The translations under genes and the position numbers were made by a program. From NCBI GenBank assembly GCA_963781585.1, contig CAWAGQ010000013.1:32001-96000 (forward strand): a stretch of 64,000 nucleotides of DNA, read 5' to 3'. The notes below the pieces were generated by a model. The model saw nothing but the letters and a program-made list of their open reading frames with translations, was not told where the DNA came from and did no database searches. Positions within the stretch are counted from its first letter, which is position 1, and every line of letters begins with the position of its first letter. Shown in pieces: positions 598-63,490 of this stretch. Source of the DNA: an uncultured Gemmatimonadaceae bacterium (GTDB taxonomy: Bacteria > Gemmatimonadota > Gemmatimonadetes > Gemmatimonadales > Gemmatimonadaceae).

Positions 598-3179
598 CGT
601 TCGCGCCCTCCCATGCCCGTCGCCCTGGTGGGCAAGTGCGCCTCGAACAACTCGAAGATACGCCGGTACTCGTCGGTCCACGAGTCGGGACGCACGAAGC
701 CGTGATTCTCCACCGGATACACCGCGAGCTGCCATCCGGTTTTCCCGAGCTCGATGAGCCGCTGGGTGAGCCGCACGATGTCCTGGAAATGCACGTTGGT
801 GTCCACCATGCCGTGCGCCATCAGCAGCGGATCCTCCAGCCCCTCGGCGAAGAAGATCGGCGACGAGCGTCGATAGGCGAGGGTGTCGGTCTGCGGCAGG
901 TTGAGGATCTGCGACGTGTACGGGTGATTGTAGTGCGCCCAGTCGGTCACCGACCGCAGCGCGGCGCCGGCGCCGAAATCCTTCGGGGCCGTGAACAGCG
1001 CCATCAGCGTCATGAAGCCGCCGTAGCTTCCGCCGTAGATGCCGATGCGGTCCGGCGAGATCCCGAATTCCTTCTGGAGGTACCGCGATCCGTCGACGTT
1101 GTCCTGCAGGTCGCGTCCGCCCATCCACCGGTAGATGGCCGTGCGCCAGTCGCGTCCGTACCCCGCCGACGCGCGATAGTCGACCGCCAGCACCACGTAT
1201 CCCTTCGACGCGAGGAACTGGTTGAACATGTACTCGCGGGCGTAGTAGTCTGCGACCAGTAGTTGTGCACGTTGTGCGCGTAGCCCGCCCCATGCACGAA
1301 GATCACGCCGGCCCCGTTAGGCCGCGCTCCCATGTCGGCGGGCCGGTAAAGCTGCGCCGGCACCTTCACCCCGTCGGACGCGGTGAACCAGATGATCTCG
1401 GGCTTGATCCAGGGGAAGCTGAGCCAGTCGGCGGTGGGCGAGGTGGTGAGCTGGGTCAGCGGCGCGCCCGCGCGGTACGGCATGACGAACAGCTCGGGCG
1501 GCCGATTGGCCGTGGAGTAGACGTCGGCGAGCATCGTGCCGGCCGGCGACACCACCACGTCGTGCCCTCCCACCTGCGTCGTTATGCGCTCGGCCGGGCC
1601 GCCGCCCACCGGCATCCGGTAGAACTGCCGCTCGAACGGCGACACCTCGCTGGTGTGGAGCTCGAAGTACCGGCCGTCGTCGGAAATGCGCGCGTCCAGT
1701 ACTTCCCACTGTCCGTGGGTGAGCTGCCGGCGGTCGCTGCCGTCGGTGTTCATCGTGTACAGGTGCGCGAAGCCGTCGGCCTCGCTCACGAACCAGACGC
1801 GGCCGCCGCCGGCACCCGCGCTCGAAATTCGAGCCTGACCCTTATTCTGGGCGGGCGGCTCCGGGACGAACCCACCGCACGGGAAGCACGGCCCGCCCAC
1901 CCACGCCGAATCGCGCAGCACGTCGAGCGTCGTCAGGCGGCCGTTGCCGGCGTCCAGCCGGTAGAAGTAGCGCTCCTTCCAGTCGCGTCGCTCGGCGAAC
2001 AGCAGCGCCTGGGTGCCGTCGTCGTTCCAGTCGAGCACCGCGACCTGGGCCGCGGTCTGCGTGGTGTCGTCGGGGATCGGGTGGATCCAGCGCAGCTGCC
2101 CCGACGGCAGCTCCATGAAGGCGACCCGCCCGCCGTTGGGGACGTCGCCCACCTTGGTTCGGGCGGTGAGATCTTCGGTGTACCCGCTGAGGGTGACGTA
2201 GCTCGGCACTTCCGCCTGACGATCGTCGGCGGCCGGAATCGTGGTGGTGAGGACGAGCGCCTTGCCCGAGGGCGACACCGACAGGCTGGTGACGCGCTCG
2301 TTCTTCATCAGATAGAGCGTCTTCGGGTGCAGCGAGTCGCGCGCCGCGCGCTCGGCCTTGGCGATCGAGTCCTGGCGCATCCGGTCGCGGATGACCTCGA
2401 ACAGCTCCTTCTGCTGCGCCTCCAGCGCCGCGCGCTGCGCGTCGGGCTTGGGCGGCTCGGCCGGCGCCGGACCGGCGCGGATGTCGGTGAGCTGGTGCAC
2501 CAGCGGAGAGTCGAGGTCGAGCGACATGACGTTCATGCCGTCGCGCACGAACAACACGCTCTTGCCGTCCGCCGAGAAGTGCGGGTTGCGCTCGTCGACC
2601 ATGGTCTCGGTGAGGCGGCGCACGGCCGACGTCTTCATGTCCACCAGGAAGAGGTCGCCGTTGTACGAGACGACCTTGCGGAGCCGGTCGCGCGACAGGG
2701 AGCCGGGTTCGAGGAGCGGGCCGGCGCTGTCCATCTGCGACTTCGGTGAGCCGCTCGGGCGCGGCGCCCGCCTGCGCGCGCACGCGGTACGGGGCCATGG
2801 ACTCCCGCCAGTCCGAGCCCGGCGGGAGCCACATGAAGTAGAGGTAGTTGCCGTCTGGCGTCCACCGGACGCGCTGCGGCGCGCGGCCGAACACCTCCGG
2901 CCCGCGCATGATGTTCTGGATGGTGAAGTCGAAGCGGGGAGCGGCAGACTGTCCCGGAGCCGGTTGCGGGGTTGTCGCGTGCGCCGCACCGGCTGCGGTG
3001 GCGCCGGGTCGCGTGCCGTCGGATTGCGCTACCGCCGGAAGGGCCGTGGGCGCCAGCAGCGCGGTGGCGGCGAGACCAGCCCTCGTCAGGCGGAGGGCCG
3101 AAATCACGCACGCTCGCGGCGCGCGCGCCCGGCGTGCGGTGGCCCGCACGGCGACTGCAACCGGAATGCGCGAGCGCAT
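594..3179 (-). pseudogene. S9 family prolyl oligopeptidase / dipeptidyl peptidase IV-like protein, two frameshifts (about 2740 and about 1250)
   Basis: Signal-like N-terminus and beta-propeller region, then [22 protein letters not shown] and ENHGF catalytic motifs, spread over ORFs 1842..5144, 1010..2989 and 594..1229. May be an intact gene with sequencing indels. Confidence 0.8.
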
Positions 3180-5248
3180 CAGTCCCCCGCCACCGCCACT
3201 CTGGGCTCGAAGGGGATTTCGGTCGATATCGCCGGCTTGTGCGCCACGACGACCGCCCACCATTCCCTGGCCGAGGCGGCGAGGATGACGATCACCGAGA
3301 GGCCGAAGAATGCCGTGACCGCCGCGTCGAAGCGGTCGTTGAAGATGAACCGCGACGCCGCCGCCGCGCTGGCCACCCCCGCCGGGACGTTGCCCGCCGC
3401 CACGGTGGACTCGAACAGCCGTGCGTGCGCCAGGAAACCCAGCCGCGGGTCGTCGGCGAAAACCTTCATCCAGCTCGCCGTCATGGTGACGGCGGTGAGC
3501 CAGGCGAGCGGCAGCAGGGTGATCCAGGCGTAGCGCGCCTTCCCCATCTTGATGATCACCGTGGTCCCCACGCACAGCGCCACCGCCGCCAGCAGCTGGT
3601 TGGCGATCCCGAACAACGGCCACAGCGTGTTCACGCCGCCTAACGGGTCGATCACCCCCTGGTACAGGAAGTATCCCCACATGAAGACGAACACCGCGCT
3701 GGTGAGCACGGTGATGGGATACGACGATCCCCGGCCGAGCGGCGCCCAGACGTGCTTCAGGAGGTCCTGGAGCATGAACCGCCCCACCCGGGTGCCGGCG
3801 TCGAGCGTGGTCAGGATGAACAGCGCCTCGAACATGATGGCGAAGTGATACCAGATGCCGAGCGCGGTCGTCCCGCCGAGCACGTTCGAGAAGAGGTGGG
3901 CCATCCCCACCGCCAGGCTCGGCGCGCCGCCGGTGCGCGAGAGGAGCGACACCTCGCCGATGTTCTGCGTGAGCTGCTGGAATTGCGCCGGGTCGAGACT
4001 GAAGCCCCAGTTCCGCACCGCCTCGGCCGCCGTCTGCACCGTGCCGCCCAGCGCGCCGGCTGGCGCGTTGATGGCGAAGTAGGTCCCCGGCGTGAGCACG
4101 CAGGCGGCGATCAGGGCCAGCGTGGCGACCAGCGACTCGGTGAGCATGCTCCCGTAGCCGATGAACCGCGCGTCGGGCTCGCGCTCCAGCAGCTTGGGCG
4201 TGGTGCCTGACGAGATGAGCGCGTGGAACCCCGAGATGGCGCCGCAGGCGATGGTGATGAACGCGAACGGGAACACCTTGCCCGCGAAGATCGGTCCGGT
4301 GCCGTCCACGAACCGCGTGAGCGCCGGCATCTGGAGCGGCGGGAGCACGATCAGCACGCCCGCCGCCAGCGCCACCACCACCCCGATCTTGACGAACGCC
4401 GAGAGGTAGTCGCGCGGCGCGAGCAGCAACCAGACCGGCAGCACCGACGCCGCGAATCCGTAGGCCATGATCAGCCAGGCGAGGGTCGACCGGCTGAGCG
4501 TGAACGCCGGCGCCAGCGCCGGGTTCTCCGACACCGCGCGCCCCACGAACAGCGCCACGATCACCAGCACGATCCCCATCAGCGTGGCCTCGAGCACCCG
4601 GTGGGGACGGATCCATCGCATGTAGCCGCCCATCAGCAGCGCGATCGGAATCGTCAGCCCCACGGTCACCACGCCCCACGGACTCGAGCCGAGCGCGTTC
4701 ACCACCACCAGCGCCAGCACCGCGATCAGCACGATCATGATGCCGAGCACGGCGACCAGGGCCGTCATCCCCGCGACCGGGCCGATCTCCTCCCTGGCCA
4801 TCTGCCCCAGCGTCTTGCCGTTCCGCCGCACCGACGCGCACAGAATCACGAAATCCTGCACCGCTCCGCCGAGCACGACGCCCACCACGATCCAGATGAT
4901 GCCGGGGAGAAACCCGAACTGCGCGGCGAGCGTCGGCCCCACCAGCGGGCCCGGTCCGGCGATGGCCGCGAAGTGGTGCCCGAAGACGATCCACCGGTTG
5001 GTGGGGACGTAGTCGCGCCCGTCGTTGAGCCGCTCGGCGGGGGTGCGCCGGTTGGCATCGAGCGCGAAGATGTTGGACGCGATGATCCGGCTGTAGAACC
5101 GGTACCCGACGAGATACGTGCACACCGCCGCCGTCACCAACCACGCGGCGTTGACCGTCTCGCCGCGCGAGAGCGCAAGGAAGGCGAACGAGCCCGCGCC
5201 GGCCAACGCGACGAGCACCCAGATCAGAATCGAAAGAGGTCGGGGCAT
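3179..5248 (-). CDS. cstA: Carbon starvation protein A (CstA/YjiY) peptide/pyruvate transporter
   Basis: GHHFAAIAGPGPLVGP, ITIACGAISGFH, LWPLFGIANQLLA motifs and many TM helices. Confidence 0.95.
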   Translation of the reverse strand: MPRPLSILIWVLVALAGAGSFAFLALSRGETVNAAWLVTAAVCTYLVGYRFYSRIIASNIFALDANRRTPAERLNDGRDYVPTNRWIVFGHHFAAIAGPGPLVGPTLAAQFGFLPGIIWIVVGVVLGGAVQDFVILCASVRRNGKTLGQMAREEIGPVAGMTALVAVLGIMIVLIAVLALVVVNALGSSPWGVVTVGLTIPIALLMGGYMRWIRPHRVLEATLMGIVLVIVALFVGRAVSENPALAPAFTLSRSTLAWLIMAYGFAASVLPVWLLLAPRDYLSAFVKIGVVVALAAGVLIVLPPLQMPALTRFVDGTGPIFAGKVFPFAFITIACGAISGFHALISSGTTPKLLEREPDARFIGYGSMLTESLVATLALIAACVLTPGTYFAINAPAGALGGTVQTAAEAVRNWGFSLDPAQFQQLTQNIGEVSLLSRTGGAPSLAVGMAHLFSNVLGGTTALGIWYHFAIMFEALFILTTLDAGTRVGRFMLQDLLKHVWAPLGRGSSYPITVLTSAVFVFMWGYFLYQGVIDPLGGVNTLWPLFGIANQLLAAVALCVGTTVIIKMGKARYAWITLLPLAWLTAVTMTASWMKVFADDPRLGFLAHARLFESTVAAGNVPAGVASAAAASRFIFNDRFDAAVTAFFGLSVIVILAASAREWWAVVVAHKPAISTEIPFEPRVAVAGD

Positions 5249-6098: not shown

Positions 6099-6108
6099 GG
6101 TAGGTGCG

Positions 6109-7125
6109 ATGGATGTCCCATGTACGTTGATCCCGGGCGACGGGATCGGGCCTGACATCGCGGCCGCAGCGGTGGGGATCCTCGAGGCCGCCGGCGCATC
6201 GTTCGAATGGGACCGGCAACTGGCGGGGGCGGCCGCGCTGAAGGCTTGTGGCACGCCGATGCCGGAGGCGACGCTCGATTCGATCCGCCGCACGCGCCTG
6301 GCGCTCAAGGGTCCCCTCGAGACGCCGGTGGGCGAGGGCTATCGGTCGGTGAACGTGGCGCTGCGGCAGACCTTCGACCTGTACGCGAACGTCCGTCCCG
6401 CGCGCGACATCGTCCCCGGTGGTCGATTCGAGAACGTCGACGTGGTGCTGATCCGCGAGAACACCGAGGGGCTCTACGCCGGCCTCGAACACTACATCCG
6501 GATCGGCGACGATCCCCAGGCGGCCGCCGAGTCGATCGCGCTGATCACCCGCGTCGGGTCGGAGCGGATCGTGCGTTATGCGTTCGACTACGCGGTACGG
6601 CACGGCCGGCGCAAAGTCACGCTGGTGCACAAGGCGAACATCCTCAAGTTCTCGCAGGGGCTCTTTCGCGCGGTGGGACAGCGGATCGCGAAGGAGTACG
6701 AGGGGCGGCTGATCTACGAGGAGCGGATCATCGACGCGGCGGCGATGCATCTGGTGATCCGGCCCGAGCAGTACGACGTGATCGTGACGACCAATCTGTT
6801 CGGCGACATCCTGTCCGATCTGGTCTCCGGCTTGGTAGGCGGACTGGGGCTGGCGCCAGGCGCCAACATCGGCCGCGACACGGCCATCTTCGAGGCGGTG
6901 CACGGTACCGCGCCCGACATCGCGGGACAGGGCATCGCGAACCCCGGCGCGCTGCTGCTGGCCGGATGTCTGATGCTCGAGCACGTGGGCGAGCACGACC
7001 GGGCGCAGCGGATCCGGCGCGCGCTGGAGTCGACCATCCGCGACGGGGCGACGCTCACCCGCGACCTGGGCGGGACTGCGTCCACGGCGGAGTTCTCGGC
7101 GGCGGTGGTCGCCCGGCTGGCGTGA
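6109..7125 (+). CDS. icd: Isocitrate/isopropylmalate dehydrogenase family (NAD-IDH-like)
   Basis: TLIPGDGIGPD, IRENTEGLY, VHKANILK, NLFGDILSD, FEAVHGTAPDIAG motifs. GAGGT RBS upstream. Confidence 0.85.
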   Translation: MDVPCTLIPGDGIGPDIAAAAVGILEAAGASFEWDRQLAGAAALKACGTPMPEATLDSIRRTRLALKGPLETPVGEGYRSVNVALRQTFDLYANVRPARDIVPGGRFENVDVVLIRENTEGLYAGLEHYIRIGDDPQAAAESIALITRVGSERIVRYAFDYAVRHGRRKVTLVHKANILKFSQGLFRAVGQRIAKEYEGRLIYEERIIDAAAMHLVIRPEQYDVIVTTNLFGDILSDLVSGLVGGLGLAPGANIGRDTAIFEAVHGTAPDIAGQGIANPGALLLAGCLMLEHVGEHDRAQRIRRALESTIRDGATLTRDLGGTASTAEFSAAVVARLA

Positions 7126-8048
7126 CCACGCCTAACGACTCGGGCGCCGGCGGGCGTGGCGGCGGCGATCGGGCCGGCGGCACCGGGCGCTCCGATCGCG
7201 GTGAGGGGCCAGGGCAGGCGGGCGGCGCGCTCTCCATGTTGCACGTCTCGGACCTCCACTTCGGACGCCCCGCGGTGCCGGCGGTGGTCGACGCGATCGA
7301 GGAACTGATCCGCCAACACCGGTACGACGTGGTGGCGGTGAGCGGCGACCTCAGCCAGCGGTCGCGCGCCGGCGAGTTCCAGCGGGCCCACGCCTTCCTC
7401 CGCGATGCGGCTCGGGTGAGCCACGTGGTGGTGGTGCCGGGGAACCACGACGTGGCGTGGTGGCGCTCGCCCCTCCATCTGGTCGGCGCCGCCACCATCT
7501 ATGGAGCGTATCGTCGCTACATCTCCGACGACCTGGAGCCGGTGCTGCGCGTTCGCGGGGCCACGATCGTCGGCCTCAACACCGCGCACGGCGTGAGCGT
7601 GGGGACGCTCACCCGCAACCCGCGCGACATCTCCATCATCGGCGACGTGCGGCCGCGGCAGCTGGAGCGGGTGCGCGCCGAATTCGCGGCATCGCCGGAG
7701 CGGGACGCGCGGATTATCATCATGCATCACAACCCGGTTCGCGGCGCCCTGTCGCGCCGCTTCGGGCTCAAGGCGCCGGCGCGGTTGCTCGACGCCCTGT
7801 CTCAGATGGGGGTGGATCTCGTGCTGTGCGGGCACGACCATCAGGAGTCGATCGATCTGATTGAGCGCACCGAGAAGGGGATGGTGATTTCGACCGCGGG
7901 TACGGTGTCGAACCGCTCGCGCGGCGGCCGCCCGTCGTCGGTCAACGAGATCCGGCTCGCGCCGTCTTCGATCGAGGTCCGTACGCTGGTCTGGTCGTCA
8001 GGCGACGGCGCGTTCGCGCCCGGCCCGGCGCGGTGCTTCCCGCGATGA
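7122..8048 (+). CDS. Calcineurin-like metallophosphoesterase (CpdA-like)
   Basis: SDLHFG, SGDL, PGNHD, MHHNP, GHDH motifs. Alternative start at 7236. Confidence 0.85.
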   Translation: MTTPNDSGAGGRGGGDRAGGTGRSDRGEGPGQAGGALSMLHVSDLHFGRPAVPAVVDAIEELIRQHRYDVVAVSGDLSQRSRAGEFQRAHAFLRDAARVSHVVVVPGNHDVAWWRSPLHLVGAATIYGAYRRYISDDLEPVLRVRGATIVGLNTAHGVSVGTLTRNPRDISIIGDVRPRQLERVRAEFAASPERDARIIIMHHNPVRGALSRRFGLKAPARLLDALSQMGVDLVLCGHDHQESIDLIERTEKGMVISTAGTVSNRSRGGRPSSVNEIRLAPSSIEVRTLVWSSGDGAFAPGPARCFPR

Positions 8049-8797: not shown

Positions 8798-11283
8798 TGC
8801 GCGCGCTGGGGAGCGCAGCGGCGGCGGTGGGACTCGGCGTCGGGCTCTGGGCGGGCGCGCGCGGCATCGGACCGCTGCCGCCGCTGGGGGGACTGCTGGA
8901 TCCGGCCAACGGCGCCTGGGCGGCGGCGCGGTTCGCCGACCTGCCGCCGGGCGGCCAGGTGCGGATTCCGCACCTGTCGGCGCCGGTCGAGGTGCGCTAC
9001 GACCGCCGGTGGGTTCCGCACATCTTCGCCGCGACCGAGGACGACGCGATTCGCGCGTTAGGCTTCGTGGTGGCGCGCGACCGGCTCTTTCAGCTCGACG
9101 CCCAGGCCCACGCGGCATCGGGGCGGCTGACCGAGTGGGCGGGAGCGCTGGCGCTGGACGACGACCGCGAGATGCGCCAGCTGGGCCTGCCGCGCGCCGC
9201 GGAACGGGAGTTCGCCTCGCTCGCCCCCGACGGTCCCTCGCGCCGCCTGCTCGACGCCTATACCGACGGGGTCAATGCGTACATCGACGGGCTCTCGCGC
9301 GCCGAGCGGCCCATCGAGTACAAGCTGCTCGGCGCGGCGCCCGAGCGCTGGGCGCCCGTCAATTCGGTTCACATGTTCAACCGGATGGGGTGGACATTGG
9401 CGCTGCTCGAGGGCGAGCGCGCGCGGCTGGCGGCCGCCGGCGTGGTGGGAGACAGCGCCGCCCGCGCCCTCTTCCCCCTCGATGCCGTCATCCAGGAGCC
9501 GATTCAGCCTGACGGGCAGCATCACCCGCGCTTCGACTTCCGGCAGCTGCCGCCGCCCGGCCGGCCCGACACCCAGGCGCTGCGGCTCTCGGCGCTGCTC
9601 GGCGTGCCGGGCACGAACGACACCGGGGAACCGCGGTGGCTCGCAAGCAACAACTGGGCGGTGGCCCCCCGCCGCACGCAGAACGGGCACGCCCTGCTGG
9701 AGGGCGATCCCCATCTCCCGCTCACGCTGCCCAGCATCTGGTACGAGGCCCATCTGGTCGTGCCCGGGCAGTTGGACGTCTACGGCGTGACGATTCCGGG
9801 CATACCGGGAATCGTGATCGGATTCACCCGGGACCTCGCCTGGTCGTTCACCAACACCGGCGCCGACGTGCTCGACTTCTACCGGGAGACGGTCGACGAC
9901 AGCGTGCGCCCCACCAGGTACCGGGTGGACGACGTGTGGCGACCGGTGGAGTCGCGGGTGGAGACCTATCGCGGCAAATCGGGCGAGGCCCTGCACACCG
10001 ATACCGTCCTGTTCACGCACCGCGGCCCGCTGTCGCGCGTGAACGGGAGCTGGGTGTCGATGCGCTGGACGATCCTGGACGGCGGGCCTGACGAGCGTGC
10101 GTTCCTGAGCGCGGCGCACGCGCACACGGCGCGCCAGTTCCTCGATACGATGGCGGCGCAGTACGGGAATGCCCCGGCGCAGAACATGCTCGTCGCCGAC
10201 CGCGCCGGATCGATCGCCATCCGCTCCACCGGCGAGTTCCCGATCCGGGCCGGGCGCGGAGACGGGCTCGTCATCCGCGACGGCTCGCGGAGCGCCAACG
10301 ACTGGCAAGGCTACTGGCCGGTGGAGCAGTATCCCCAGGCCTTCGATCCGGAGCAGGGCTATCTGGCGTCGGCCAACCAGCAGCCCATCGATCCGCGCGC
10401 CGCGCCCGCCTATCTCGGCTACGAAGCCGCGTTCGATCCGTGGCGCGCGCTGCGCATCAATCATCTGCTGCGCGACGATTCGGCGGTGACGGTTGACGCG
10501 ATGCGCCGCTTCCAGACCGACCCGGGGAGCGAGCGCGCCGAGCTGCTGGCGCCGTTCTTCGTGGCGCCGGACGCGGACGCGCCGATGCGCGGGAGCGATG
10601 CGTCGCGCCTCGACTCGGCGCGCGCCTGGCTGGCCGGATGGGATCGCCGCTATACGCGGGAGAACGAGCGCACGGTGCTGTTCGAGGCGGCGGTGCGCCA
10701 GCTGATATCTCGGGCGTGGGACGAGCTGGCGCCCGAGGGCGGACGTCGCGTGGCCACGCCCACCACCGAGATACTGCTCGAGCTTCTGCACGACTCCGCC
10801 AGCGTGTGGTGGGACGACCGCCGCACGCCGGACCGGGTGGAGCGGCGCGGGGACATCGTCGGCGCATCCCTGCTCGCTGCCTACGACAGCCTCGTCAGGC
10901 GGCTGGGGCCGCCCGGGCCTGCGTGGCGGTGGGATCGGGTTCAGCCGGCGCGGGTGAACCACTTGCTCGGGTTACCGGGCTTCTCGGTGCGCAACATTCC
11001 GGTGCAGGGAGGACCGGGGACGCTCAATCCGGCCGGTCCGGGCGGCGACGGGCCGAGCTGGCGGATGGTGGTGGAGCTCGGGGCCGAGGTCCGCGCCTGG
11101 GGCACGTATCCCGGGGGGCAGAGCGGGAATCCCGCGAGCCGGCGCTATCTCGATCGCCTGCCGCTCTGGCGCGAAGGGCAGCTCGACACGCTGTTCGTGC
11201 CGCGCGACACCGGCGCGGTCGCGCCGTCGCCGGCGCGGGTGCGGCTCGTTCCATCGTCGGCCGCGAAAGGAGGAACGCCGTGA
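8797..11283 (+). CDS. Penicillin acylase family (Ntn hydrolase; AHL-acylase-like)
   Basis: VPHIFA, ARDRLFQLD, ASNNWAV nucleophile, DPHL, PGGQSGNP motifs. Confidence 0.92.
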   Translation: MRALGSAAAAVGLGVGLWAGARGIGPLPPLGGLLDPANGAWAAARFADLPPGGQVRIPHLSAPVEVRYDRRWVPHIFAATEDDAIRALGFVVARDRLFQLDAQAHAASGRLTEWAGALALDDDREMRQLGLPRAAEREFASLAPDGPSRRLLDAYTDGVNAYIDGLSRAERPIEYKLLGAAPERWAPVNSVHMFNRMGWTLALLEGERARLAAAGVVGDSAARALFPLDAVIQEPIQPDGQHHPRFDFRQLPPPGRPDTQALRLSALLGVPGTNDTGEPRWLASNNWAVAPRRTQNGHALLEGDPHLPLTLPSIWYEAHLVVPGQLDVYGVTIPGIPGIVIGFTRDLAWSFTNTGADVLDFYRETVDDSVRPTRYRVDDVWRPVESRVETYRGKSGEALHTDTVLFTHRGPLSRVNGSWVSMRWTILDGGPDERAFLSAAHAHTARQFLDTMAAQYGNAPAQNMLVADRAGSIAIRSTGEFPIRAGRGDGLVIRDGSRSANDWQGYWPVEQYPQAFDPEQGYLASANQQPIDPRAAPAYLGYEAAFDPWRALRINHLLRDDSAVTVDAMRRFQTDPGSERAELLAPFFVAPDADAPMRGSDASRLDSARAWLAGWDRRYTRENERTVLFEAAVRQLISRAWDELAPEGGRRVATPTTEILLELLHDSASVWWDDRRTPDRVERRGDIVGASLLAAYDSLVRRLGPPGPAWRWDRVQPARVNHLLGLPGFSVRNIPVQGGPGTLNPAGPGGDGPSWRMVVELGAEVRAWGTYPGGQSGNPASRRYLDRLPLWREGQLDTLFVPRDTGAVAPSPARVRLVPSSAAKGGTP

Positions 11284-11323: not shown

Positions 11324-11716
11324 GTGAGGCACGCGCCGCGCATCGTGCTCGGCGCCGCGGTCGTGGCGTTAGGCACCTGGTTCGGGGGATGGCTGGCGCC
11401 GCCGGTGTGGGGAGCGCTGCTGGGGGCGGCGTTGCCCCGCGGGCGTCCCGCCCGGTGGGCCGCGCTCGACGCGGCGGTGGGGTGGGCCGCGATTCTGGCC
11501 CTGCTTGCCGTGGGGGGCGATCCGGTGGGCACGCTGGCGGGGCGTCTGGCGGGCGCGATGGGGGTGCCGGTCGTGGCGCTGGTGGCGGCGACGGTGGCCT
11601 TCCCGGCGCTCCTGGCCTCGTGCGCGGCGTGGCTGGCGGCGCAGATCCCGACCCCGCGGCGCACCGACACGCGTGGCAGCAAGTCGCCGGCGATGATCAT
11701 GAGGGACGCGGCCTAG
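11324..11716 (+). CDS. Small hypothetical membrane protein
   Basis: Several hydrophobic segments, directly downstream of the acylase. Start uncertain. Confidence 0.6.
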   Translation: MRHAPRIVLGAAVVALGTWFGGWLAPPVWGALLGAALPRGRPARWAALDAAVGWAAILALLAVGGDPVGTLAGRLAGAMGVPVVALVAATVAFPALLASCAAWLAAQIPTPRRTDTRGSKSPAMIMRDAA

Positions 11717-11846
11717 CCCGGGTTCGGGTTACGGCGCGGTGTCTCGCCGGCCTTTCGGGTCGTCGCAGGATGGTCGACGCTGGATCAAGTGCGCTCGTGC
11801 CAGATGGTTTGGTCACTTCACACCTGCCGCGCAATAGGCACTCCGG

Positions 11847-12662
11847 TCAGGCGCTTCGCGAATTGGTTGTGTCGAAGTGGTCGCGCGCGGCGCGCACGCA
11901 GATGCCCACCAAGGTTGCTTCGTCCAGTACTGCGCAGAGGCGGCCTGGGGTCAGTCCCGTGAGCTTGCTTACCTCTTCGATCAAGGCGTTCCGTGAGTCG
12001 ATCCCTGCCGCGTGTGATGCTTGCTTGAGCCCGTAGTTGAAGTTGCGCACGAGATTGAAGACGAGTGCCACCCTGGCCGCGCGGCGAAGGACGCGAAACC
12101 GTCGTAGCCCGGCGCCCGCGAGTTCCCGGTTCAACCTGCGGATCCGCACGTCGAGCGGTCGTCCGACCTCCTTTTCGGTTCGGTACAGCGCGGGCTCCTG
12201 AAAAAGGTGTCCGAGGAGGCAGGCGGCGTCGCGCGAGAGGGGCCGGGGCAACGATGCGCAGATCGCATCGAGCACGCGAATGCCGAGGGCGCCGGCGGCG
12301 GCACGTTCAATCGCAGCGCGACAACCGACGGCGAGCGCGGTCGAGGTGCGAAGGGCGACGTGAATCCACGCGTTATGGGCCGCCATCGCGACCCACTGCA
12401 ACGCTCCGAGGGATGCCGGCGTCAGCAGGACGACGGGGAGCCCCAGCCGGCGGTAGAACGCGCGGAACTGACCTTCGGGATCGTCTCCGGAACAGATGGA
12501 ATCCAGATCGCCAGGGTCGAGGACCGCTACGTCAAACGCGGATCGCTGCGCGCGGCGAACCAACTCACCCAGATCAGTGGTCCATTCGAGCGCATGCTCA
12601 GGCCCGAGCTCCTGGCGCACTGCTTCGAAGCCTTCTCGGTCAAGGCAACACAGGACACGCAT
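11847..12662 (-). CDS. Transcriptional regulator: degenerate receiver-like N-domain plus AraC-like HTH
   Basis: FDVAVLDP...LPVVLLT followed by RRLNREL..AG and LKQASHAAG.DSRNAL....KLTGLTP, an AraC-like C-terminal pattern. Confidence 0.6.
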   Translation of the reverse strand: MRVLCCLDREGFEAVRQELGPEHALEWTTDLGELVRRAQRSAFDVAVLDPGDLDSICSGDDPEGQFRAFYRRLGLPVVLLTPASLGALQWVAMAAHNAWIHVALRTSTALAVGCRAAIERAAAGALGIRVLDAICASLPRPLSRDAACLLGHLFQEPALYRTEKEVGRPLDVRIRRLNRELAGAGLRRFRVLRRAARVALVFNLVRNFNYGLKQASHAAGIDSRNALIEEVSKLTGLTPGRLCAVLDEATLVGICVRAARDHFDTTNSRSA

Positions 12663-12819
12663 ACCGCGACATTCGCCTCACTACGCTCGCGCGCGCGGGC
12701 ACGTTCAACCTGCCGCGCGTTCCTCGTCCGATTTCCACGCCGAGCGTACGGTGCGATTCCACGCATCCTTCGTCAAGGCCATGCCTGGTTCCGCCGTTTG
12801 GCGCGCGCGGCGCGGGTCA

Positions 12820-12849
12820 AAAACAGGACAAATATGCGCAAAACGGGAC
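12820..12849. promoter_or_regulatory. Direct-repeat candidate operator in the divergent intergenic region
   Basis: AAAACAGGAC (12820-12829) and AAAACGGGAC (12840-12849), 20-bp period. Confidence 0.4.
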
Positions 12850-12965
12850 TGTCCATGCGTCCCGGGCCGCCGGACTGTTCATCGGGTCGGAAGCAAGCGA
12901 ACGAAGCAAGCCTCAGGATCTGCGAGTCGCATTAGGCAACGCAACACCCTCACGCGGAGAATCCC

Positions 12966-14107
12966 ATGCAAGAGAGAACCGCTCTATTCCTTCTGACCAC
13001 ACTGGCTCTTGTTGCATCCCATCTGCATGCCGCGAGGCGCCGACCGAAGCCAGGCCAGGTGTTCCTCGCCTTTCGGCAGATCCTGCAAGAGTGAATCCAC
13101 CTCTGGAAGACACGAGCGCGTTGACGCTTTCGGACGCACTCGTCGAACCAAAGCGTTCTGTCCTTCAGACCATGGATTTCTACAAGGCTAATGGAACCCT
13201 TGAACAGCACATCGAAGGTCACGACCTCTCGGCGAAGATGTTGTCCTCCGTAACGGAAGCGCGTGGTTCGGAGCCCTCCGCTCTCGACAGTCTTAGTCGC
13301 GTCCTGGAGCAGCATGCCCAGCGCCCGTTTGCGAACACTGAGCGGGTGCTCCAAATCATCGATGCCATTCGGGCACAAACAGCGGCAGAGTTTCACCAGC
13401 GCGTCCGGAACCTACCTGTTACGCTCACCATGTCCTTGACCCGGGACGCGCAAGGACGTCAAGGGGTTGAGAAGGTATACACCCATGTCACCGGGCGAAA
13501 GCTCGTGGTGTTTACCGTGACCAACCAGACAGATGAACTGAACCCTCTGACGGGCCTGCAGGACCCAAGTGATGGCGCCACCGAGAACAGAACGGTGGAA
13601 GGGGAGTTGGAGGTTCAGAATTCGACAACGGAGGGCGCGGAATCGAGCGCATATGATTGCGACTATACCGATGACGAGTCAAACTACTGGTCAGGTGAGT
13701 GTGCTACCGAGCAGGACATTGAGGACGCTACGATCGTGGCGCTCAGCATGGATGCCGAGAGCGAAGCTGTTGTCAACCAGGAGGATTCCGAGATAGCGTC
13801 GTACTGCCTCAGCCATAATGAAGATGAGCTCTGTGCGGCGCAGGAGGAGTCCGGGAAGTCCTTCGCGATCGGAGACATGACCGGTCCAAATGCCTTCGGA
13901 GGAGGAGGGCTTAGCTGCTCCGCCGCGGGAATAACATTCTTCGGAACAGCTGTGAACTATGGCTACAGGGCGTGGAAGCTGTGGCGAGTGATCAACGCGA
14001 TAGACCCGCCCGCCGGCGCGCTCGGTGACGCAGTTATCCTGGGCGGCATAGCTCTTGCCGGTGTCTCGGCAGCGGGTATTGTCTTGCACGATTGCTTGGC
14101 GCAGTAA
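12966..14107 (+). CDS. Putative lipoprotein with a C-terminal hydrophobic bacteriocin-like domain (1-nt frameshift near 13020)
   Basis: GGAGA RBS and MQERTALFLLTTLALVAS in one frame, with SAC-REAPTE lipobox and the rest in ORF 12065..14107. Acidic linker, GGGG, then a Cys-flanked hydrophobic 65-aa tail. Confidence 0.6.
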
Positions 14108-14154
14108 GAGCGCGCTTGGCGCGCACGCGGCCACTCTCCATAATCGGAGGCACA

Positions 14155-14415
14155 ATGACGTGGGCTCTGATGTTCACAAGCTTGGCCATTGGGGGCTGCA
14201 TTGCGTTCATCATTGTGCGCGTGAGGCGATACAAGAGCGCGTCACGATCGGCACTCCTCGGAGCGTTCGCGACTTTGAACCTCGCAGTGGCGGTACTGCT
14301 CTTCCAAATACTATCGGCCAGCGCTATCCGCTCAATAATGGTGGCCCTCCTTCTGTTTGTTGCGCTTTGGTTTTTCGTCGCGGAAATCCGAACATCGAGA
14401 GATACCCTAACGTAG
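14155..14415 (+). CDS. Small 3-TM membrane protein (immunity-like)
   Basis: GGAGG RBS, 86 aa, three hydrophobic helices, basic loop RVRRYK. Confidence 0.65.
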   Translation: MTWALMFTSLAIGGCIAFIIVRVRRYKSASRSALLGAFATLNLAVAVLLFQILSASAIRSIMVALLLFVALWFFVAEIRTSRDTLT

Positions 14416-14658
14416 TCAGTGGAGTTGATCGCGCTCCCACCGCCGATCCCGCAGTTCCAGTGGGAGGTATCGGGACTGGCGCATTCAGAGACGATCACGA
14501 CTGCTCCGGGGGCAAACGCGGTTGTGGCAGTGATTCGGGCCATGACGGGCCAAGGCTAAGACGCTGCACGCTGAATGACCTGCTCCTATAACGGCCGGCT
14601 GTTCTCGAAGAAGACTGATCGCCCCCGGGATGGAGAGCGGGGTGCGCTGGTTCGGAGG

Positions 14659-15909
14659 ATGAGTCACGGGGTACAGCGAGCGTCGCTTGCAATGCTCCTG
14701 GCTCATGGGCTCGCGAGTTGCAAGCTCGAGCGGGCGGTGCTGGGATCCAGTGGCGCACTGCCGCACGCGGGCGGTATCAACCCCCTCAGTTTGCTCATCT
14801 GGCGGAATGCACAGGTGCGTGACATCGCACGCGTGCCCGTCCTGGATTCCGAGAACGTCTACACCCTGAGCCGCACGCATGTGGTCTCGGCGCTGGCAAA
14901 GGCCGAGGGACGCTCCGCTGGCAGATCACGCTGCCTGTTTCGCACCCCGAGCGCGGTGGGTTTGGACTTGCGCTGGCGGGTAGCACACTGGTCGTGGGCG
15001 ACATCGATCTGTTTGGACTGGATCCCGCCACAGGACAAGTTCGTTGGACATATCACCCCTCGGTGGGTGCGTGGCCGGGGTTCGGGACGCTGACCAGTGA
15101 TGGCACGACGGTCTTCACGGGCTCGGCCACAGGCCACGTCTTCGCCGTGGACGGAGCCTCGGGTGCGGAGCGCTGGACGGCCCACATCGCGGCCGACACA
15201 AACACGAATGTCTTCACGCCCATCGTGAGGCACGGCGTGGTCTATGCCGCATACACCGACTTCTATCTTGATTCACCGCCGGCGACGCGAGGCCTGCGCG
15301 GGGGGGCGGCGGCGCTCGACGCCGCCACCGGGCGGATCGTGTGGTCGACCTATCTGCCCAAGGCCGACGCCTTGGTCCGTACCGACGTTTACGACGTCGG
15401 CCTCACGGATGACCGTGTAGTCCTGGCGCCCGGCAACGAAACGCGTGTACGGGCTGGATCGGGCCACCGGGGCACTACGGGACACGGTTCCGGCCAGCAC
15501 GTACCTGCAGGTGAGCACGACGCTCCCGCAGGGGGACTTGAGGGGAGAGTTGGTGCGAGCCCTAGCGAGCGCGGGCAACCTCGTTGTGGTCTCCAGCAAC
15601 TTCGTACGACCTAACGGGCCGAATGTGACAGCGCTGTCCGTGCCCGATCTGAACCGGCGCGTGTGGCATACGCTCACGATCGGCTCGGCGATGAGCGTCG
15701 CCCTCGACTCGTCGTTCGCGTACGTGGGAAATTTCGCGGGCAGTTGCTGGTCCTGCGTCTCTCGGATGGCAGCGCAGTCTGGCAGATCAACCGCTTCGAT
15801 CTGCGGCCGAACGACGGCGAAGAGGGACTCTTCAGCGGTCCCGCCATCGAGGGCGACCGGCTCTATCTGGGTGTCGTTGCGGAGGTCTACGCGTTCAGGA
15901 AACCGCGAG
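14659..15909 (+). pseudogene. PQQ/BamB-like beta-propeller lipoprotein, three frameshifts and no stop
   Basis: LASC lipobox; repeats FGLDPATGQVRW, FAVDGASGAERW, ALDAATGRIVW, LSDGSAVW. Pieces lie in four ORFs and end VYAFRKP-CGA. Confidence 0.7.
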
Positions 15910-16028
15910 CCAACGCGGCCGGGCAGCTTGGTAGACGCGTCTCGACGTTGCCAGCGCGGTGGCACGACAGTGCCTCGCGACCACGGCTGCTAGGCTCGGC
16001 GCACCGTCAGGCACTATGTTTCGCCCCG

Positions 16029-26688: not shown

Positions 26689-26690
26689 GC

Positions 26691-27218
26691 CTAACGCCCC
26701 ATGATGTCGCGCTCCACCAGCGACGCCAGCTCGTCGAGCCAATCGCCGGAATCGAGCCGGAGAATCGGGAGCGGCGCCGCGAACGTCGCGTCGTCGGTGA
26801 CCACCGCACGGTAGTACGCCGCCGCCTCGGATTCCGGGAGCCAGAGCGGCCGCGGGTGCACCGCGCGTCGGTGGATCTCGATCTTCGGCAGGGCGGACGA
26901 CTTGAATCCTTCGCACAGCACCACGTCGGCATCGCTCATGTACGACCTCGCAACCTCCTCGGCGTCCCGCTCGTCGCTCCAGCGCATCACCAGCGCGAAC
27001 TTGTCCGGCGCGACCATTGCCACCCGTTCGGCGTTTCCCTCGTGGAAATGCCGGTAGGTGTCGGTGGTCGCCGGGTCGATGTTGAAGGTGTGCGTGCCGT
27101 GCTTGATCGTCATCACCCGATGTCCCCGACGATGCAACTCGGCCGCCAGCTTCACCAGCAGCGTCGTCTTGCCGCTGTTCTTACGTCCGATGATCGACAC
27201 CATCGGGGGTCGTCGCAT
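26691..27218 (-). CDS. mobB: Molybdopterin-guanine dinucleotide biosynthesis protein B
   Basis: GRKNSGKTTL P-loop, IKH, EGFK...PKIE. Confidence 0.9.
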   Translation of the reverse strand: MRRPPMVSIIGRKNSGKTTLLVKLAAELHRRGHRVMTIKHGTHTFNIDPATTDTYRHFHEGNAERVAMVAPDKFALVMRWSDERDAEEVARSYMSDADVVLCEGFKSSALPKIEIHRRAVHPRPLWLPESEAAAYYRAVVTDDATFAAPLPILRLDSGDWLDELASLVERDIMGR

Positions 27219-32180: not shown

Positions 32181-32193
32181 CGGACGCGGCGCC

Positions 32194-53303: not shown

Positions 53304-53521
53304 GGTGAGAGAGGGTAAGGGGTGAGGGCGCCTGGCTGGCTCGTTAGGCGCACGCGTTCCGGAGATCGGTCGCGTTCCGCGGCCCCGCCTGCGGAGCCCT
53401 GACGCCGTCGCGTGACCGCCGACTTGCCGGTCCCACGCCCATCCTACGTCCGACAGCCGGAAAGGTGTCGCCCGGGCAATCCGCCGGCCCCGGACGCGCC
53501 CGCGACCGACTCCTCAGCGGC

Positions 53522-57511: not shown

Positions 57512-57530
57512 CTATCATTTCATACCGCCT

Positions 57531-59357
<1,827 letters not shown>

Positions 59358-59376
59358 TCCCGGTGGGGCCCCTGGA

Positions 59377-59844
59377 ATGACGGCGGTATCGGAGGTCCAC
59401 ATTCGCGCCGCGACGACCGCCGACCTGCCGGTGGCGCGCGCGCTTCTCGCGTCGGCCGAGCTGCCGCTGGACGGCCTCGAAGAATCTTTTGGCGAGGGAT
59501 ACGTCCTGGTGGAATCCGACGGAGAGCTGGTCGGCATCGAGGGCGTCGAAGTGCATGGCCGGGACGGACTCCTGCGGTCGGCGGCGGTCGCTCCCGGCTG
59601 GCGCGGGCGCGGCCTCGGCGACCGCATGACCCGCGACCGGATCGCCTGGTCGCGCCGGCGCGGTCTGCGGGCGCTGTACCTCCTGACCACGACGGCGGGG
59701 GACTATTTCCCGCGTTTCGGCTTCCTGCCAGCCGATCGGACGGCAGCGCCGGATGCGATCCGGACATCGCGGGAGTTCTCCCGGGCATGCCCCGACACGG
59801 CGTTGCTGATGCGTATGGCGTTAGGCAGCGACTCCGGAGCGTGA
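59377..59844 (+). CDS. GNAT acetyltransferase, ArsN2-like
   Basis: LLRSAAV...RGRGLG, LYLLTTTA..YF.R.GF, EF...CP.TA. Confidence 0.8.
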   Translation: MTAVSEVHIRAATTADLPVARALLASAELPLDGLEESFGEGYVLVESDGELVGIEGVEVHGRDGLLRSAAVAPGWRGRGLGDRMTRDRIAWSRRRGLRALYLLTTTAGDYFPRFGFLPADRTAAPDAIRTSREFSRACPDTALLMRMALGSDSGA

Positions 59845-59928
59845 CGGATCCCGGCACGCCGGCCCCGGTCGCGAGGAGATCGGGCGCCGGGCTCGGCGCG
59901 CCGCTGCCGGGACGCTACCTTTCAACCC

Positions 59929-60381
59929 ATGCGCGTTCTGCTGCAGCGCGTCTCGCGCGCCGAAGTTCGCGTTAGGCAGCCTGACGGCACGGCGGGAACC
60001 GCCGGCCGGATCGGCCGTGGGTACCTTCTCCTGGTCGGGTTTACGGACGCTGACGACGAGCCCCGCCTGGCGTGGATGGCCGACAAGGTGATCGGCCTGC
60101 GCCTGTTCGCCGACGCCGATCAGAAGATGAATCTGGCGCTTGGCGACGTGGGGGGATCGCTGCTGGTCGTGTCGCAGTTCACCCTCTACGGCGACGTGCA
60201 GAAGGGCCGCAGACCAAGCTTCCTCGATGCGGCCCGGCCGGATGTCGCGGTTCCGCTGTACGACCGTTTCGTGGCGCTCCTCCGCGAGCGCGGTGCAACC
60301 GTGGAAACCGGCGTGTTCGGCGCCATGATGGACGTGGAGCTGGTGAATGACGGCCCGGTGACGCTCTGGCTCGAGCGATGA
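59929..60381 (+). CDS. dtd: D-aminoacyl-tRNA deacylase
   Basis: QRV, VSQFTL, GRRPSF, FGAMM.V.LVNDGPVT. Confidence 0.96.
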   Translation: MRVLLQRVSRAEVRVRQPDGTAGTAGRIGRGYLLLVGFTDADDEPRLAWMADKVIGLRLFADADQKMNLALGDVGGSLLVVSQFTLYGDVQKGRRPSFLDAARPDVAVPLYDRFVALLRERGATVETGVFGAMMDVELVNDGPVTLWLER

Positions 60382-60977
60382 CCGCTCCGCGCGTCGTCCT
60401 GGCGTCTGAATCGCCCCGCCGGCACGATCTGCTGACCCTGATCGGGATACCACACGACGTGCGACCGGCGCACATCGATGAGACCAGCCATCCCGATGAG
60501 GCACCAGCTGTCCACGTGGAGCGGCTTGCCCGCGAAAAGGCCTCCGCGATCGCCGCCCTCGATCCCGGCGCGGTGGTGATCGGAGCGGACACCGAGGTGG
60601 TCCTCGATGGCGCGGTGCTCGGGAAGCCGACCGACCAGGAGGATGCGCGACGCATGTTGGGCCGCCTCTCGGGACGGACCCATACCGTGCTGACGGCGGT
60701 GGCGGTGGCATACGACGGCGCGCTCGCCTCGGGCGTGGAAACGGTGGAGGTGACTTTTCGCCCGCTCACCGACGCGGCGATCGCCTCGTACCTGGCCACC
60801 GGCGAACCGATGGACAAGGCCGGGGCGTACGGGATCCAGGGATACGGCGCCGTGATCGTGCGGCGGATCGACGGTGACTACTTCGCGGTCATGGGCCTGG
60901 CGTTAGGCAGACTCGTGCACCTGCTGGCCGAGGTGGGGATCCGGTATGACTTCGGCGTGCTGTGCGCGGCCGATTGA
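60378..60977 (+). CDS. maf: Maf nucleotide pyrophosphatase
   Basis: LASESPRR, GADT, LGKP, DKAGAYGIQ. Confidence 0.95.
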   Translation: MTAPRVVLASESPRRHDLLTLIGIPHDVRPAHIDETSHPDEAPAVHVERLAREKASAIAALDPGAVVIGADTEVVLDGAVLGKPTDQEDARRMLGRLSGRTHTVLTAVAVAYDGALASGVETVEVTFRPLTDAAIASYLATGEPMDKAGAYGIQGYGAVIVRRIDGDYFAVMGLALGRLVHLLAEVGIRYDFGVLCAAD

Positions 60978-61130: not shown

Positions 61131-61154
61131 GGTGTCCAGAGGAAAGGCTCCCTG

Positions 61155-62729: not shown

Positions 62730-63490
62730 GCGCGCGATGGCATCGCCGCCAGCGATCGCAGCTGTCGCAGTTCGTCGTCGTCGAATCCCGCTCCGTTCTG
62801 CTCGCGCATTTTTCGAACGGAGCGCTCGAGCCGCGCGAGGTTGGCGGCCTGCACGTTGGGGTCGCCTGGCGGCGCGAAGCGGACGCGATCGACGTCGAGG
62901 ACGAAGGCGCGATCCACCCCGGTCGCATCGGGAACGAGGAAAATGTTGCGGACGTTGAGGTCGGGGTGCCAGGCGCCAGCGCGGGTCAGGGCCTGCATGA
63001 GTTCGCCGAGCGACGCCAGCCAGGAACCTCGCGCCGGTGCCGCCGCAGGCGTCATCAAGGCGTCACCGAGGTCGTGGCCGGTGAGCTCCAGCGTCACGAA
63101 GTCGCTTCGGCGGAACAGCCACCCCGTCTGGTAGATGGCGAATGCTGCCACGGGCGGTGTTCGCACCCCGGCGCTGGCGAGGACGTACGAGACCAGCAGC
63201 TCGTAGGGGGCGCGGGTCGGTGGGAGAAAGACGTCCTTGAGCAAGGGGCCCAGCAGGCCGCCGTGGTGACCGTGCCGCACCACCACCCGACGTCCGTCGT
63301 TAGGCATCGGGACCGAGAACGCGGGGACCCGGCCGGGCAGTTCCCGGCGCTCGGGGTGCCGCGACGCCCACTCGTACAGCGTCCCGGTCCGCAACACCTC
63401 GCGTGTCCAGTCGACACAGGAGGTGTGCGCAACCACCCGCGTTGCCCCCACGCGGAAGTGGCTGAACTCCTTCGGCACCGGCAGCCTCAC
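62726..63490 (-). CDS. Kdo/lipopolysaccharide kinase family (KdkA/InaA-like)
   Basis: VRH..HGG, GVRTP, HPDLN..NI, LDVDR, NL.RL.RS..K. Confidence 0.8.
   Translation of the reverse strand: MRLPVPKEFSHFRVGATRVVAHTSCVDWTREVLRTGTLYEWASRHPERRELPGRVPAFSVPMPNDGRRVVVRHGHHGGLLGPLLKDVFLPPTRAPYELLVSYVLASAGVRTPPVAAFAIYQTGWLFRRSDFVTLELTGHDLGDALMTPAAAPARGSWLASLGELMQALTRAGAWHPDLNVRNIFLVPDATGVDRAFVLDVDRVRFAPPGDPNVQAANLARLERSVRKMREQNGAGFDDDELRQLRSLAAMPSRA

Follow-up and report, generated by a model that had tools for sequence, protein, structure and literature searches.

To our knowledge, a role in DNA uptake has been demonstrated for iterated genome-wide words in only two proteobacterial families, the cyanobacterial word HIP1 is still unexplained after decades, and no transformation is known in Gemmatimonadota. 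Here, we describe an iterated octamer, CGTTAGGC, that is embedded in a 64,000-base stretch of DNA (the window) of an uncultured Gemmatimonadaceae bacterium (positions 32,001 to 96,000 of contig CAWAGQ010000013.1, assembly GCA_963781585.1). The described systems to which it is closest are the uptake signal sequences (USS) of Pasteurellaceae, the DNA uptake sequences (DUS) of Neisseriaceae, and HIP1. Passages in Findlay and Redfield (PMC2817400) describe uptake sequences as located in several reading frames at poorly conserved residues, as missing from genes without homologues and as accumulating after divergence. The same passages place 65% and 49% of the copies of two Pasteurellaceae, and 34.5% of the Neisseria DUS, within open reading frames (ORFs), count 1,471 USS copies in the genome of Haemophilus influenzae, and report that the USS frames correlate with preferred codons. 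HIP1 (GCGATCGC) is an octamer that is presented in an excerpt of PMC5861425 as exceeding expectation 15- to 300-fold and as conserved both inside ORFs and between them, and in an excerpt of PMC13756078 as recognized by two methylases. In these portions of the two sources (PMC5861425, PMC13756078), HIP1 is periodic, methylated and now proposed to be an uptake signal, with nucleoid structure and DNA exchange being debated as its role.

An exact count over the whole window yielded 21 copies of CGTTAGGC, about one per 3 kb, the first starting at position 1315 and the last located at 63298..63305. The word is non-palindromic, its reverse complement being GCCTAACG, and 14 copies are present on the plus strand and seven on the minus strand. 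An earlier reading of the sequence (the original prediction), in which the word was put forward as a candidate DNA signal, had given the same number, strand distribution and coordinates. We compared this number with three null models. The mean number of copies in 100 dinucleotide shuffles of the window was 0.87 (standard deviation (sd) 0.85, largest value 3), and none of the shuffles reached 21. An order-3 Markov model predicts 0.76 copies against the 21 observed, and CGTTAGGC is the top-ranked 8-mer of the window. The third model was a synonymous-codon shuffle carried out 500 times within each gene, which preserves every protein and the codon usage of each gene; it gave a mean of 0.55 copies (sd 0.72, maximum 4), whereas 18 copies are observed in the gene set. 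Across the null models, the excess amounts to 25- to 40-fold, and the Markov and codon-aware nulls are thus both rejected.

The 7-mers CGTTAGG and GTTAGGC are present 25 and 22 times in the window, respectively, which corresponds to four plus one, i.e., five, variants that match over seven bases only, the number reported before. The base that follows the octamer is A in 11 copies, G in seven, C in two and T in one. A purine therefore follows in 18 of the 21 copies, again as reported before; among the in-gene copies, this is the case for 15 of 18, while frame-specific composition predicts 9.7. When the window is pooled with the two relatives that contain the word (L004 and L001, see below), the ninth base is a purine in 26 of 30 copies. 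The flanks of the copies are unrelated and the flanking columns are uninformative apart from this ninth base and, hence, we define the word as an 8-mer with a preferred purine at the ninth position. The coefficient of variation (CV) of the spacing between copies is 0.75, versus 0.96 for random placement (P=0.11), which is compatible with random placement or perhaps slightly more even, and the largest gap between copies is 7.5 kb.

Pfam matching of the 62 candidate ORFs of the window identified an ordinary chromosomal region containing cstA, icd, a penicillin amidase gene, electron transfer flavoprotein genes, moeA, mobA, mobB and fdhD (molybdenum cofactor), dacB, gpmI, guaB, ubiE, ubiD, ubiA, ubiX, purD, fpg, glmM, glmS, dtd, maf, a heptosyltransferase gene and a Kdo kinase gene. 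The reading frames of the CGTTAGGC copies, analyzed on a curated list of 58 genes, show that 18 of the 21 copies (86%, about the coding density) lie fully within coding sequence. Copies were located by exact matching together with, for those in genes, the reading frame; for dtd, maf and the Kdo kinase gene the assignment rests on the frame and on orthologue alignment, and for glmS on orthologue alignment.

Ten copies, in ten genes, are read in the sense frame NCG-TTA-GGC. This frame takes the form GCG-TTA-GGC in the genes encoding penicillin amidase (9056..9063, +), a hypothetical protein of 141 amino acids (11367..11374, +), SAM hydroxide adenosyltransferase (41789..41796, +) and a GNAT protein (59819..59826, +), and in maf (60901..60908, +). 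It is ACG-TTA-GGC in lpxR (17579..17586, +), dacB (25597..25604, -) and glmS (58639..58646, +), CCG-TTA-GGC (Pro-Leu-Gly) in cstA (3638..3645, -), and TCG-TTA-GGC in ubiA (47190..47197, +). The second sense frame, C-GTT-AGG-C (Val-Arg), is used by three copies: in mobA (27612..27619, -; GGC-GTT-AGG-CAT), the second M15 peptidase gene (34264..34271, +; CCC-GTT-AGG-CAG) and dtd (59970..59977, +; CGC-GTT-AGG-CAG). Three further copies are in the antisense frame G-CCT-AAC-G (Pro-Asn), in the S9 peptidase gene (1315..1322, +), ubiD (46272..46279, -; CCG-CCT-AAC-GTC) and the Kdo kinase gene (63298..63305, +; ATG-CCT-AAC-GAC), and two are in the antisense frame GC-CTA-ACG, in the SDR gene (18850..18857, +) and the L,D-transpeptidase gene (32684..32691, -), both as CGC-CTA-ACG (Arg-Leu-Thr). 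The remaining three copies are located outside the coding interior. One forms the TAG stop codon of mobB (26689..26696, -; CGT-TAG) and abuts the ATG of dacB, and two are intergenic, namely 5 nt past the TGA stop codon (7123..7125) of icd (7130..7137, -) and between the start of the M48 peptidase gene and the stop of the Cys/Met PLP-enzyme gene (53342..53349, +).

The original prediction had counted five coding frames. We find four, plus one use as a stop codon; the frame independence on which that count was meant to bear holds. Its six genes with TTA-GGC are all correct, and the 141-amino-acid hypothetical ORF, lpxR, the SAM hydroxide adenosyltransferase gene and the GNAT gene bring the number to ten. 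The genes that it listed for CCT-AAC (three), GTT-AGG (three) and CTA-ACG (two), and the TAG of mobB, are all as it stated, and so is the intergenic copy at 53342; the copy at 7130 is a second intergenic one. Its statement that the word is not a protein motif is borne out by the four frames, the use as a stop codon and the intergenic copies. The gene set contains only 19 TTA codons in 19,139 codons; ten of these 19 lie within CGTTAGGC, in agreement with the claim that the word imposes rare codons, and four more are located in variants matching it at 7 of 8 or 6 of 8 positions. A protein motif or codon effect is ruled out by the spread over frames, the use of a rare codon and the synonymous-shuffle null.

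Two of the possible frames would introduce a stop codon into the gene. Blind placement would put about one third of the copies in these frames, yet none of the 18 in-gene copies is found there. Natural selection has filtered the copies of CGTTAGGC, and random or artificial placement is ruled out. Two copies act as real stop codons, the one in mobB and one at position 7512 of L004, and both are read as CGT-TAG. The mobB-dacB junction (26686..26696, -) reads CGT-TAG-GC-ATG; here, a CGTTAGGC copy makes up the entire junction, and the gap between stop and start is two bases.

The range of the word was determined by using the GlmS protein of the window as a query against genome contigs. This returned 80 loci, among which the window's own genome was not present, and the evidence from relatives comes wholly from the region orthologous to positions 48-64 kb of the window. 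The best matches are Gemmatimonadaceae or Gemmatimonadota metagenome-assembled genomes, with GlmS identities to the window of 85% for L004, 82% for L001, 80% for L002 and 79% for L053 (Gemmatimonas sp.). L004 contains seven copies of CGTTAGGC in 21,824 bases, where 0.15 are expected, and no 8-mer of this locus ranks higher; L001 contains two copies in 6,675 bases. Both densities equal that of the window. In contrast, no copies were found in 163,937 bases of 11 other Gemmatimonadota loci, which include L002, L003 and L053, and the 78 other loci taken together contain seven copies in 1,302,759 bases. When the bearing loci (the window, L004 and L001; 92.5 kb) are compared with the non-bearing ones, CGTTAGGC stands out, well ahead of all other 8-mers, as the most differential one (30 versus 0 copies, z 33.6). 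The enrichment is shared with two close relatives, and the word is lineage-specific, as had been predicted. In the GlmS tree, the window and L004 group together (99/99) in a well-supported six-member Gemmatimonadaceae group that also contains three non-bearing genomes; a single origin of CGTTAGGC is compatible with this tree, without being supported by it (38/2).

The top 8-mers of the non-bearing relatives are CAGTTCGA in L053 (11 copies), GAAGTGCT in L054 and GGGCAAGA in L012, with z scores of about 8. In contrast to the frame-independent CGTTAGGC, they are nearly always read in one frame and with common codons (Gln-Phe-Asp/Glu, Glu-Val-Leu and Gly-Lys). Because these best 8-mers are mostly locked to a single frame with common codons, they reflect codon effects, and alternative dialects of the word in L053, L054 and L012 are ruled out. 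A plasmid protein search with the acyl-CoA dehydrogenase gave no Gemmatimonadota among the matches listed or among the ten commonest genera (2,053 matching records).

The gene order near glmS is conserved and, hence, sites could be aligned codon by codon, which yielded eight alignable sites. The only shared one is that in glmS, which reads ACG-TTA-GGC in the window, L004 and L001 even though adjacent synonymous positions differ, and at whose Leu position the non-bearing relatives have CTC, TAT, TAC or ATC. At the fourfold-degenerate sites of glmS, the three bearing genomes share only 45-49% identity, i.e., these sites are saturated and near the identity given by composition alone, so that neutral inheritance does not explain the shared rare codon. 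The other seven sites are private to one genome. Two of these are purely synonymous gains: GCG-TTA-GGC at position 16645 of L004 versus GCG-CTG-GGT in the window, and GCG-TTA-GGC at position 3428 of L001 versus GCG-CTC-GGC in the window and GCG-CTC-GGG in L004. Private gains through amino acid changes, at positions that are variable among relatives, are present in dtd, in maf (GCG-TTA-GGG in L001, matching 7 of 8, and GCG-ATC-GGC in L004) and in the Kdo kinase gene (Leu-Pro-Asp/Thr/Gly in relatives). Orthologous sites differ from CGTTAGGC by two to four substitutions and by no insertions or deletions (indels). In each lineage, copies of the word thus continue to arise and to be retained, and what counts is their density and not where exactly they lie. 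The region between glmS and dtd differs among the three genomes: the window has the GNAT gene there (59358..59929), L004 has an unrelated insert of about 2.7 kb (11825..14531) with a CGTTAGGC copy of its own (13896), and in L001 dtd directly follows glmS.

It is hardly credible that the copies are no biological signal and go back to chance, to codon usage, to a protein motif common to the genes, to the insertion of a repeat or to an error in sequencing or assembly. Two points speak for this explanation: the sample is limited to the 64 kb and, in two relatives, a single orthologous region, and the apparent frameshift in the S9 peptidase gene raises the possibility of errors in the assembly. Against it, all of the null models are rejected; moreover, two other assemblies, which stem from different records, are likewise enriched in the word, and 164 kb of related loci lack it. 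An assembly or base-calling artefact is ruled out by the enrichment in these two other records (L004 and L001); the three assemblies are separate, no internal stop codons are present, and the sites differ by substitutions without insertions. An inserted repeat or the footprint of a mobile element is also ruled out, since the flanks are unrelated and the orthologues align codon for codon without indels. We conclude that CGTTAGGC reflects a real, ongoing, coding-independent force at the DNA level and that it is actively maintained in a young Gemmatimonadaceae clade. Its genome-wide enrichment is an extrapolation from a 64-kb housekeeping window with evenly spread copies and the orthologous region in two relatives.

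The turnover of positions, with the density held at about one per 3 kb in three genomes, would be accounted for if CGTTAGGC were the binding site of an abundant chromosome-organizing, segregation or silencing protein, for which the density would matter and not the exact position. The sharp definition over 8-9 bases, the presence in both orientations and inside and outside genes, and the fairly even spread without a gap above 7.5 kb also agree with such a site. However, the matS, parS, SlmA and Noc sites number in the tens per system, and the FtsK-orienting polar sequences (KOPS) are highly polar, a polarity that is excluded here (see below). We therefore consider a binding site of this kind decidedly unlikely.

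In-gene copies are more often in the sense (13) than in the antisense (five) orientation of the gene. To see what this ratio means, the sites at which the encoded peptide is compatible with the word have to be considered. In the sense orientation, the window contains 59 [SPTA]LG sites, ten of which carry CGTTAGGC, and 58 VR[LPHQR] sites, three of which carry it; in the antisense orientation, there are seven PN[VADEG] sites (three carrying it) and 25 [SRCG]LT sites (two carrying it). Peptide compatibility alone thus gives 79% sense copies, and a preference linked to transcription or RNA is unnecessary. The alternative that the word functions at the RNA level, being recognized in mRNA as CGUUAGGC by, for example, a nuclease or an RNA-binding protein, would explain why about three-quarters of the genic copies are sense, in the window as well as in L004 and L001 (7:2 by automated ORF assignment). 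This alternative is nevertheless very improbable; besides the peptide argument, five antisense and two intergenic copies are present, and in the window there is no Rfam family match and no nearby pairing partner above chance.

The orientations of the 21 copies along the window are, in order, + - - + + + + - - - - + + - + + + + + + +, and the plus strand holds 67% of them. KOPS and the other architecture-imparting polar octamers (read by FtsK and SpoIIIE) are non-palindromic, chromosome-wide words with above about 85% of the copies on one strand per replichore. The interleaved orientations, at 14:7 and without a single switch point, exclude a polarity of the KOPS type. The weak strand bias described in the original prediction is present, and is largely predicted by proteome compatibility: in genes, the ratio of plus to minus copies is 13:5, versus 9.6:8.4 expected from the peptide classes and gene strands (p=0.16). 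By peptide site, the word is carried by 8 of 29 [SPTA]LG sites in plus-strand genes and by 2 of 30 in minus-strand genes. The strand ratio is 4:3 in L004 and 1:1 in L001, which brings the total to 19:11. The GC skew of the window is near zero and tracks the gene strand.

Chi is a non-palindromic, taxon-specific word of 5 to 8 bases that is found every few kb, for the most part inside genes; in Escherichia coli it is present about once per 4.5 kb and is roughly 75% co-oriented. An exact, non-palindromic and mostly genic 8-base word present about once per 3 kb resembles this signal, and the lineage-specific sequence of CGTTAGGC fits with Chi varying between taxa. It is, therefore, conceivable that CGTTAGGC is read on single-stranded DNA by a RecBCD- or AddAB-type helicase-nuclease of the clade, an explanation that we regard as somewhat unlikely. 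At about the same level of doubt, the word would switch this enzyme from degradation to the loading of RecA, thereby serving the protection or repair of self DNA, and would be selected for its density and its co-orientation with replication. The one-strand excess, non-significant as it is (p=0.16), speaks for this explanation; on the other hand, the GC skew of the window indicates no replication direction, and the 25- to 40-fold excess on rare codons is well above that of Chi, which is few-fold and codon-friendly.

Next, variants of CGTTAGGC with one mismatch were analyzed. In the window, the total for these neighbours is close to that expected (64 versus 43.5). For individual variants, expectations were scaled from the non-bearing Gemmatimonadota loci, which served as an empirical background. 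CGTCAGGC is present 27 times in the bearing loci, versus 6.8 expected (p=2.6e-5), and CGTGAGGC 17 times, versus 3.9; these two position-4 variants are about 4-fold raised, and solely in the three bearing genomes. The 19 CGTCAGGC copies of the window (e.g., at 1931, 4205, 34246 and 59979) are read in five frames, and a purine follows 16 of them. CGTTGGGC, the synonymous precursor, is depleted in the bearing loci (2 versus 11.3 expected), and the transition variant CGTTAGGT is present five times in bearing and not at all in non-bearing loci. The position-4 pattern would fit relaxed recognition at this position, with the nearest synonymous precursors drained, and raised CGTCAGGC together with depleted CGTTGGGC would fit a balance between mutation and drive. 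Since unrelated 8-mers reach similar scores in the comparison of bearing and non-bearing loci, both are suggestive only. Inverted partners near the CGTTAGGC copies are at chance in the window control (2 seen versus 2.6 expected), and pairing as a hairpin or terminator via inverted CGTCAGGC partners (34246 and 59979) is ruled out on this ground. It is also ruled out that the word stems from a methylated CGTCAGGC by deamination, as CGTCAGGC is raised and not drained, and the T- and C-forms together are far above background.

The five-to-zero distribution of CGTTAGGT, a possible deamination product at the last C, bears on yet another explanation, namely that a DNA methyltransferase specific to the clade, or another modification enzyme, recognizes CGTTAGGC in the way that methylases recognize HIP1. 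The length of the two words is equal and the fold-excess is similar, the range given for HIP1 in the excerpt of PMC5861425 being 15- to 300-fold. The somewhat more even spacing than random (CV 0.75 versus 0.96, P=0.11) and the conservation of the glmS site despite saturated synonymous divergence also agree with it. Still, we consider this explanation unlikely. CGTTAGGC is not a palindrome, just one of the eight alignable sites is conserved, the C-variant at position 4 is raised and not drained, and a repair bias acting on single positions is unable to build the word, since orthologues differ at two to four positions. Moreover, Pfam matching of the 62 ORFs of the window revealed no methyltransferase gene, and the literature searched gave no relevant Gemmatimonas methylome. 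Equally unlikely is the mode of action that would go with it, in which selection or a biased repair process maintains the word because of a role in nucleoid structure, in repair or in DNA exchange that depends on methylation.

By analogy with the known uptake sequences, we tentatively favour the explanation that CGTTAGGC is an uptake-sequence-like tag of self DNA that is spread by molecular drive. With a shade more caution, we suggest that CGTTAGGCR may be a sequence for DNA uptake or self-recognition that has recently evolved within a sub-family clade of Gemmatimonadaceae. A force acting on the DNA word itself would hold it at about one per 3 kb, in both orientations and both in and between genes, and would override codon preference and, where constraint is weak, amino acid identity. 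Its source would be a sequence-specific protein of a DNA-uptake or transformation route that favours fragments bearing the word. Alleles with CGTTAGGC would then be over-transmitted through homologous replacement, and the word would build up wherever proteins tolerate it and mark conspecific DNA. It is an inference that the word is tied to uptake or transformation and that a receptor exists.

Several observations weigh against an uptake tag. Pfam matching of the 62 ORFs of the window revealed no recognizable competence gene, the literature searched gave no report on transformation or competence in Gemmatimonadota, and a paper on the evolution of ComEC does not mention this phylum. Known uptake sequences are over-represented between genes, whereas CGTTAGGC shows no intergenic excess (18 of 21 copies are in genes), and terminator-like inverted pairs are not above chance (2 versus 2.6 expected). 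One-mismatch variants in which the rare core is intact show no enrichment as a class in the window (about 11 versus about 11.7 expected), and the enrichment of CGTCAGGC is no larger than that reached by unrelated 8-mers in the same comparison. In addition, the strand counts (14:7 overall, 13:5 versus 9.6:8.4 in genes, and 8/29 versus 2/30 by peptide site) leave room for a Chi-like polarity. As for novelty, no description of the motif was found in the literature searched, which lies mostly outside subscription journals, in line with the original prediction. Among the matches listed, those to the bare word CGTTAGGC look like primers and constructs, and none of those listed for a search that also covered Gemmatimonads, uptake or over-representation contains it.

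Some other features of the window deserve mention. The S9 peptidase gene (594..2989, -) is split over two frames, with the DPPIV_N part in ORF 1010..2989 and the Peptidase_S9 domain (E 6.9e-47, with a GGSYGG serine motif) in ORF 594..1229. The switch is near 1250..1262, about 55 nt downstream of the CGTTAGGC copy at 1315 and not at the copy itself; the gene is either a pseudogene or contains a one-base assembly error. This gene also separates a small YbdD/YjiX-like "Sel_put" ORF (about 397..579, -) from cstA (3179..5248), which such an ORF normally follows directly. The stretch 11847..15614 may be a more recently acquired segment: the bin 12001..16000 has the lowest G+C content of the window (0.627), the ORFs of the stretch, including one of 680 amino acids (12065..14107), have no Pfam match and a low GC3 (0.71-0.74), and no CGTTAGGC copies are present between 11375 and 17578. 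A cell-wall remodelling cluster is located at 31999..35263 (+), consisting of the L,D-transpeptidase (YkuD) gene followed by two adjacent paralogous genes for M15/DUF882-type peptidases. Rfam and tRNA scans of the window gave no matches.

If CGTTAGGC is indeed an uptake tag, it would represent the first uptake or self-recognition sequence system outside Proteobacteria, the debated cyanobacterial HIP1 apart. Natural transformation that selects for sequence, and a receptor dedicated to it, would then be implied for a phylum that is widespread in soil. The word would also be a first indication that Gemmatimonadota exchange DNA in a sequence-selective manner. As the word is missing from sister lineages, a presence/absence comparison could reveal the receptor gene, and gene content compared across this boundary should point to the reader, whether this is a receptor of the pilin type, a nuclease-helicase or a methyltransferase. 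Furthermore, the presence of the word in three diverged genomes and its absence from their nearest relatives make the origin of such signals directly testable, and the many private synonymous gains constitute a natural experiment on drive versus selection. In practice, CGTTAGGC could be used as a marker for binning contigs of the clade and, if it is an uptake tag, could aid genetic tractability.

Comparison with the described systems places CGTTAGGC as follows. It shares with KOPS that it is a non-palindromic octamer, but differs in its 14:7 strand ratio, its interleaved orientations and the lack of a single switch point. Like Chi, it is non-palindromic, taxon-specific, mostly genic, present once per few kb and mildly in excess on one strand; unlike Chi, its excess is far larger and goes against codon preference, and the strand excess is not significant (p=0.16). 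DUS are often present as inverted pairs at terminators, whereas inverted pairing of CGTTAGGC is not above chance, and no dialect was seen in the non-bearing relatives. In both cases the word is specific to a clade, and relatives differ in its presence or sequence, as set out for DUS in a portion of PMC3630211; that CGTTAGGC marks self DNA, as DUS do, is a candidate role. DUS are longer, at 10-12 bases, and 34.5% of them are in ORFs according to the passages cited above (PMC2817400). CGTTAGGC is similar to HIP1, as portrayed in the excerpts cited, in being an octamer with a similar fold-excess (25- to 40-fold) that is present in and between ORFs and is not a peptide or RNA motif. However, HIP1 is palindromic, methylated by known enzymes and phylum-wide, while CGTTAGGC is asymmetric, confined to a sub-family clade and conserved at one of eight sites. 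The differences from USS lie in density (about one per 3 kb versus 1,471 copies in the H. influenzae genome), in the fraction within genes (86% versus 65% and 49%) and in the dominant frame, which uses the rarest Leu codon where the USS frames follow preferred codons (passages of PMC2817400); flanking AT-rich segments, or an extended context beyond the ninth-base purine, are also lacking. Nevertheless, like the USS of Pasteurellaceae with their 9-base core, as characterized in these passages, CGTTAGGC is a short, non-palindromic, hugely over-represented and lineage-specific word that is present in both orientations and several frames and, judging from the eight alignable sites, is located at poorly conserved amino acids and was gained after divergence.

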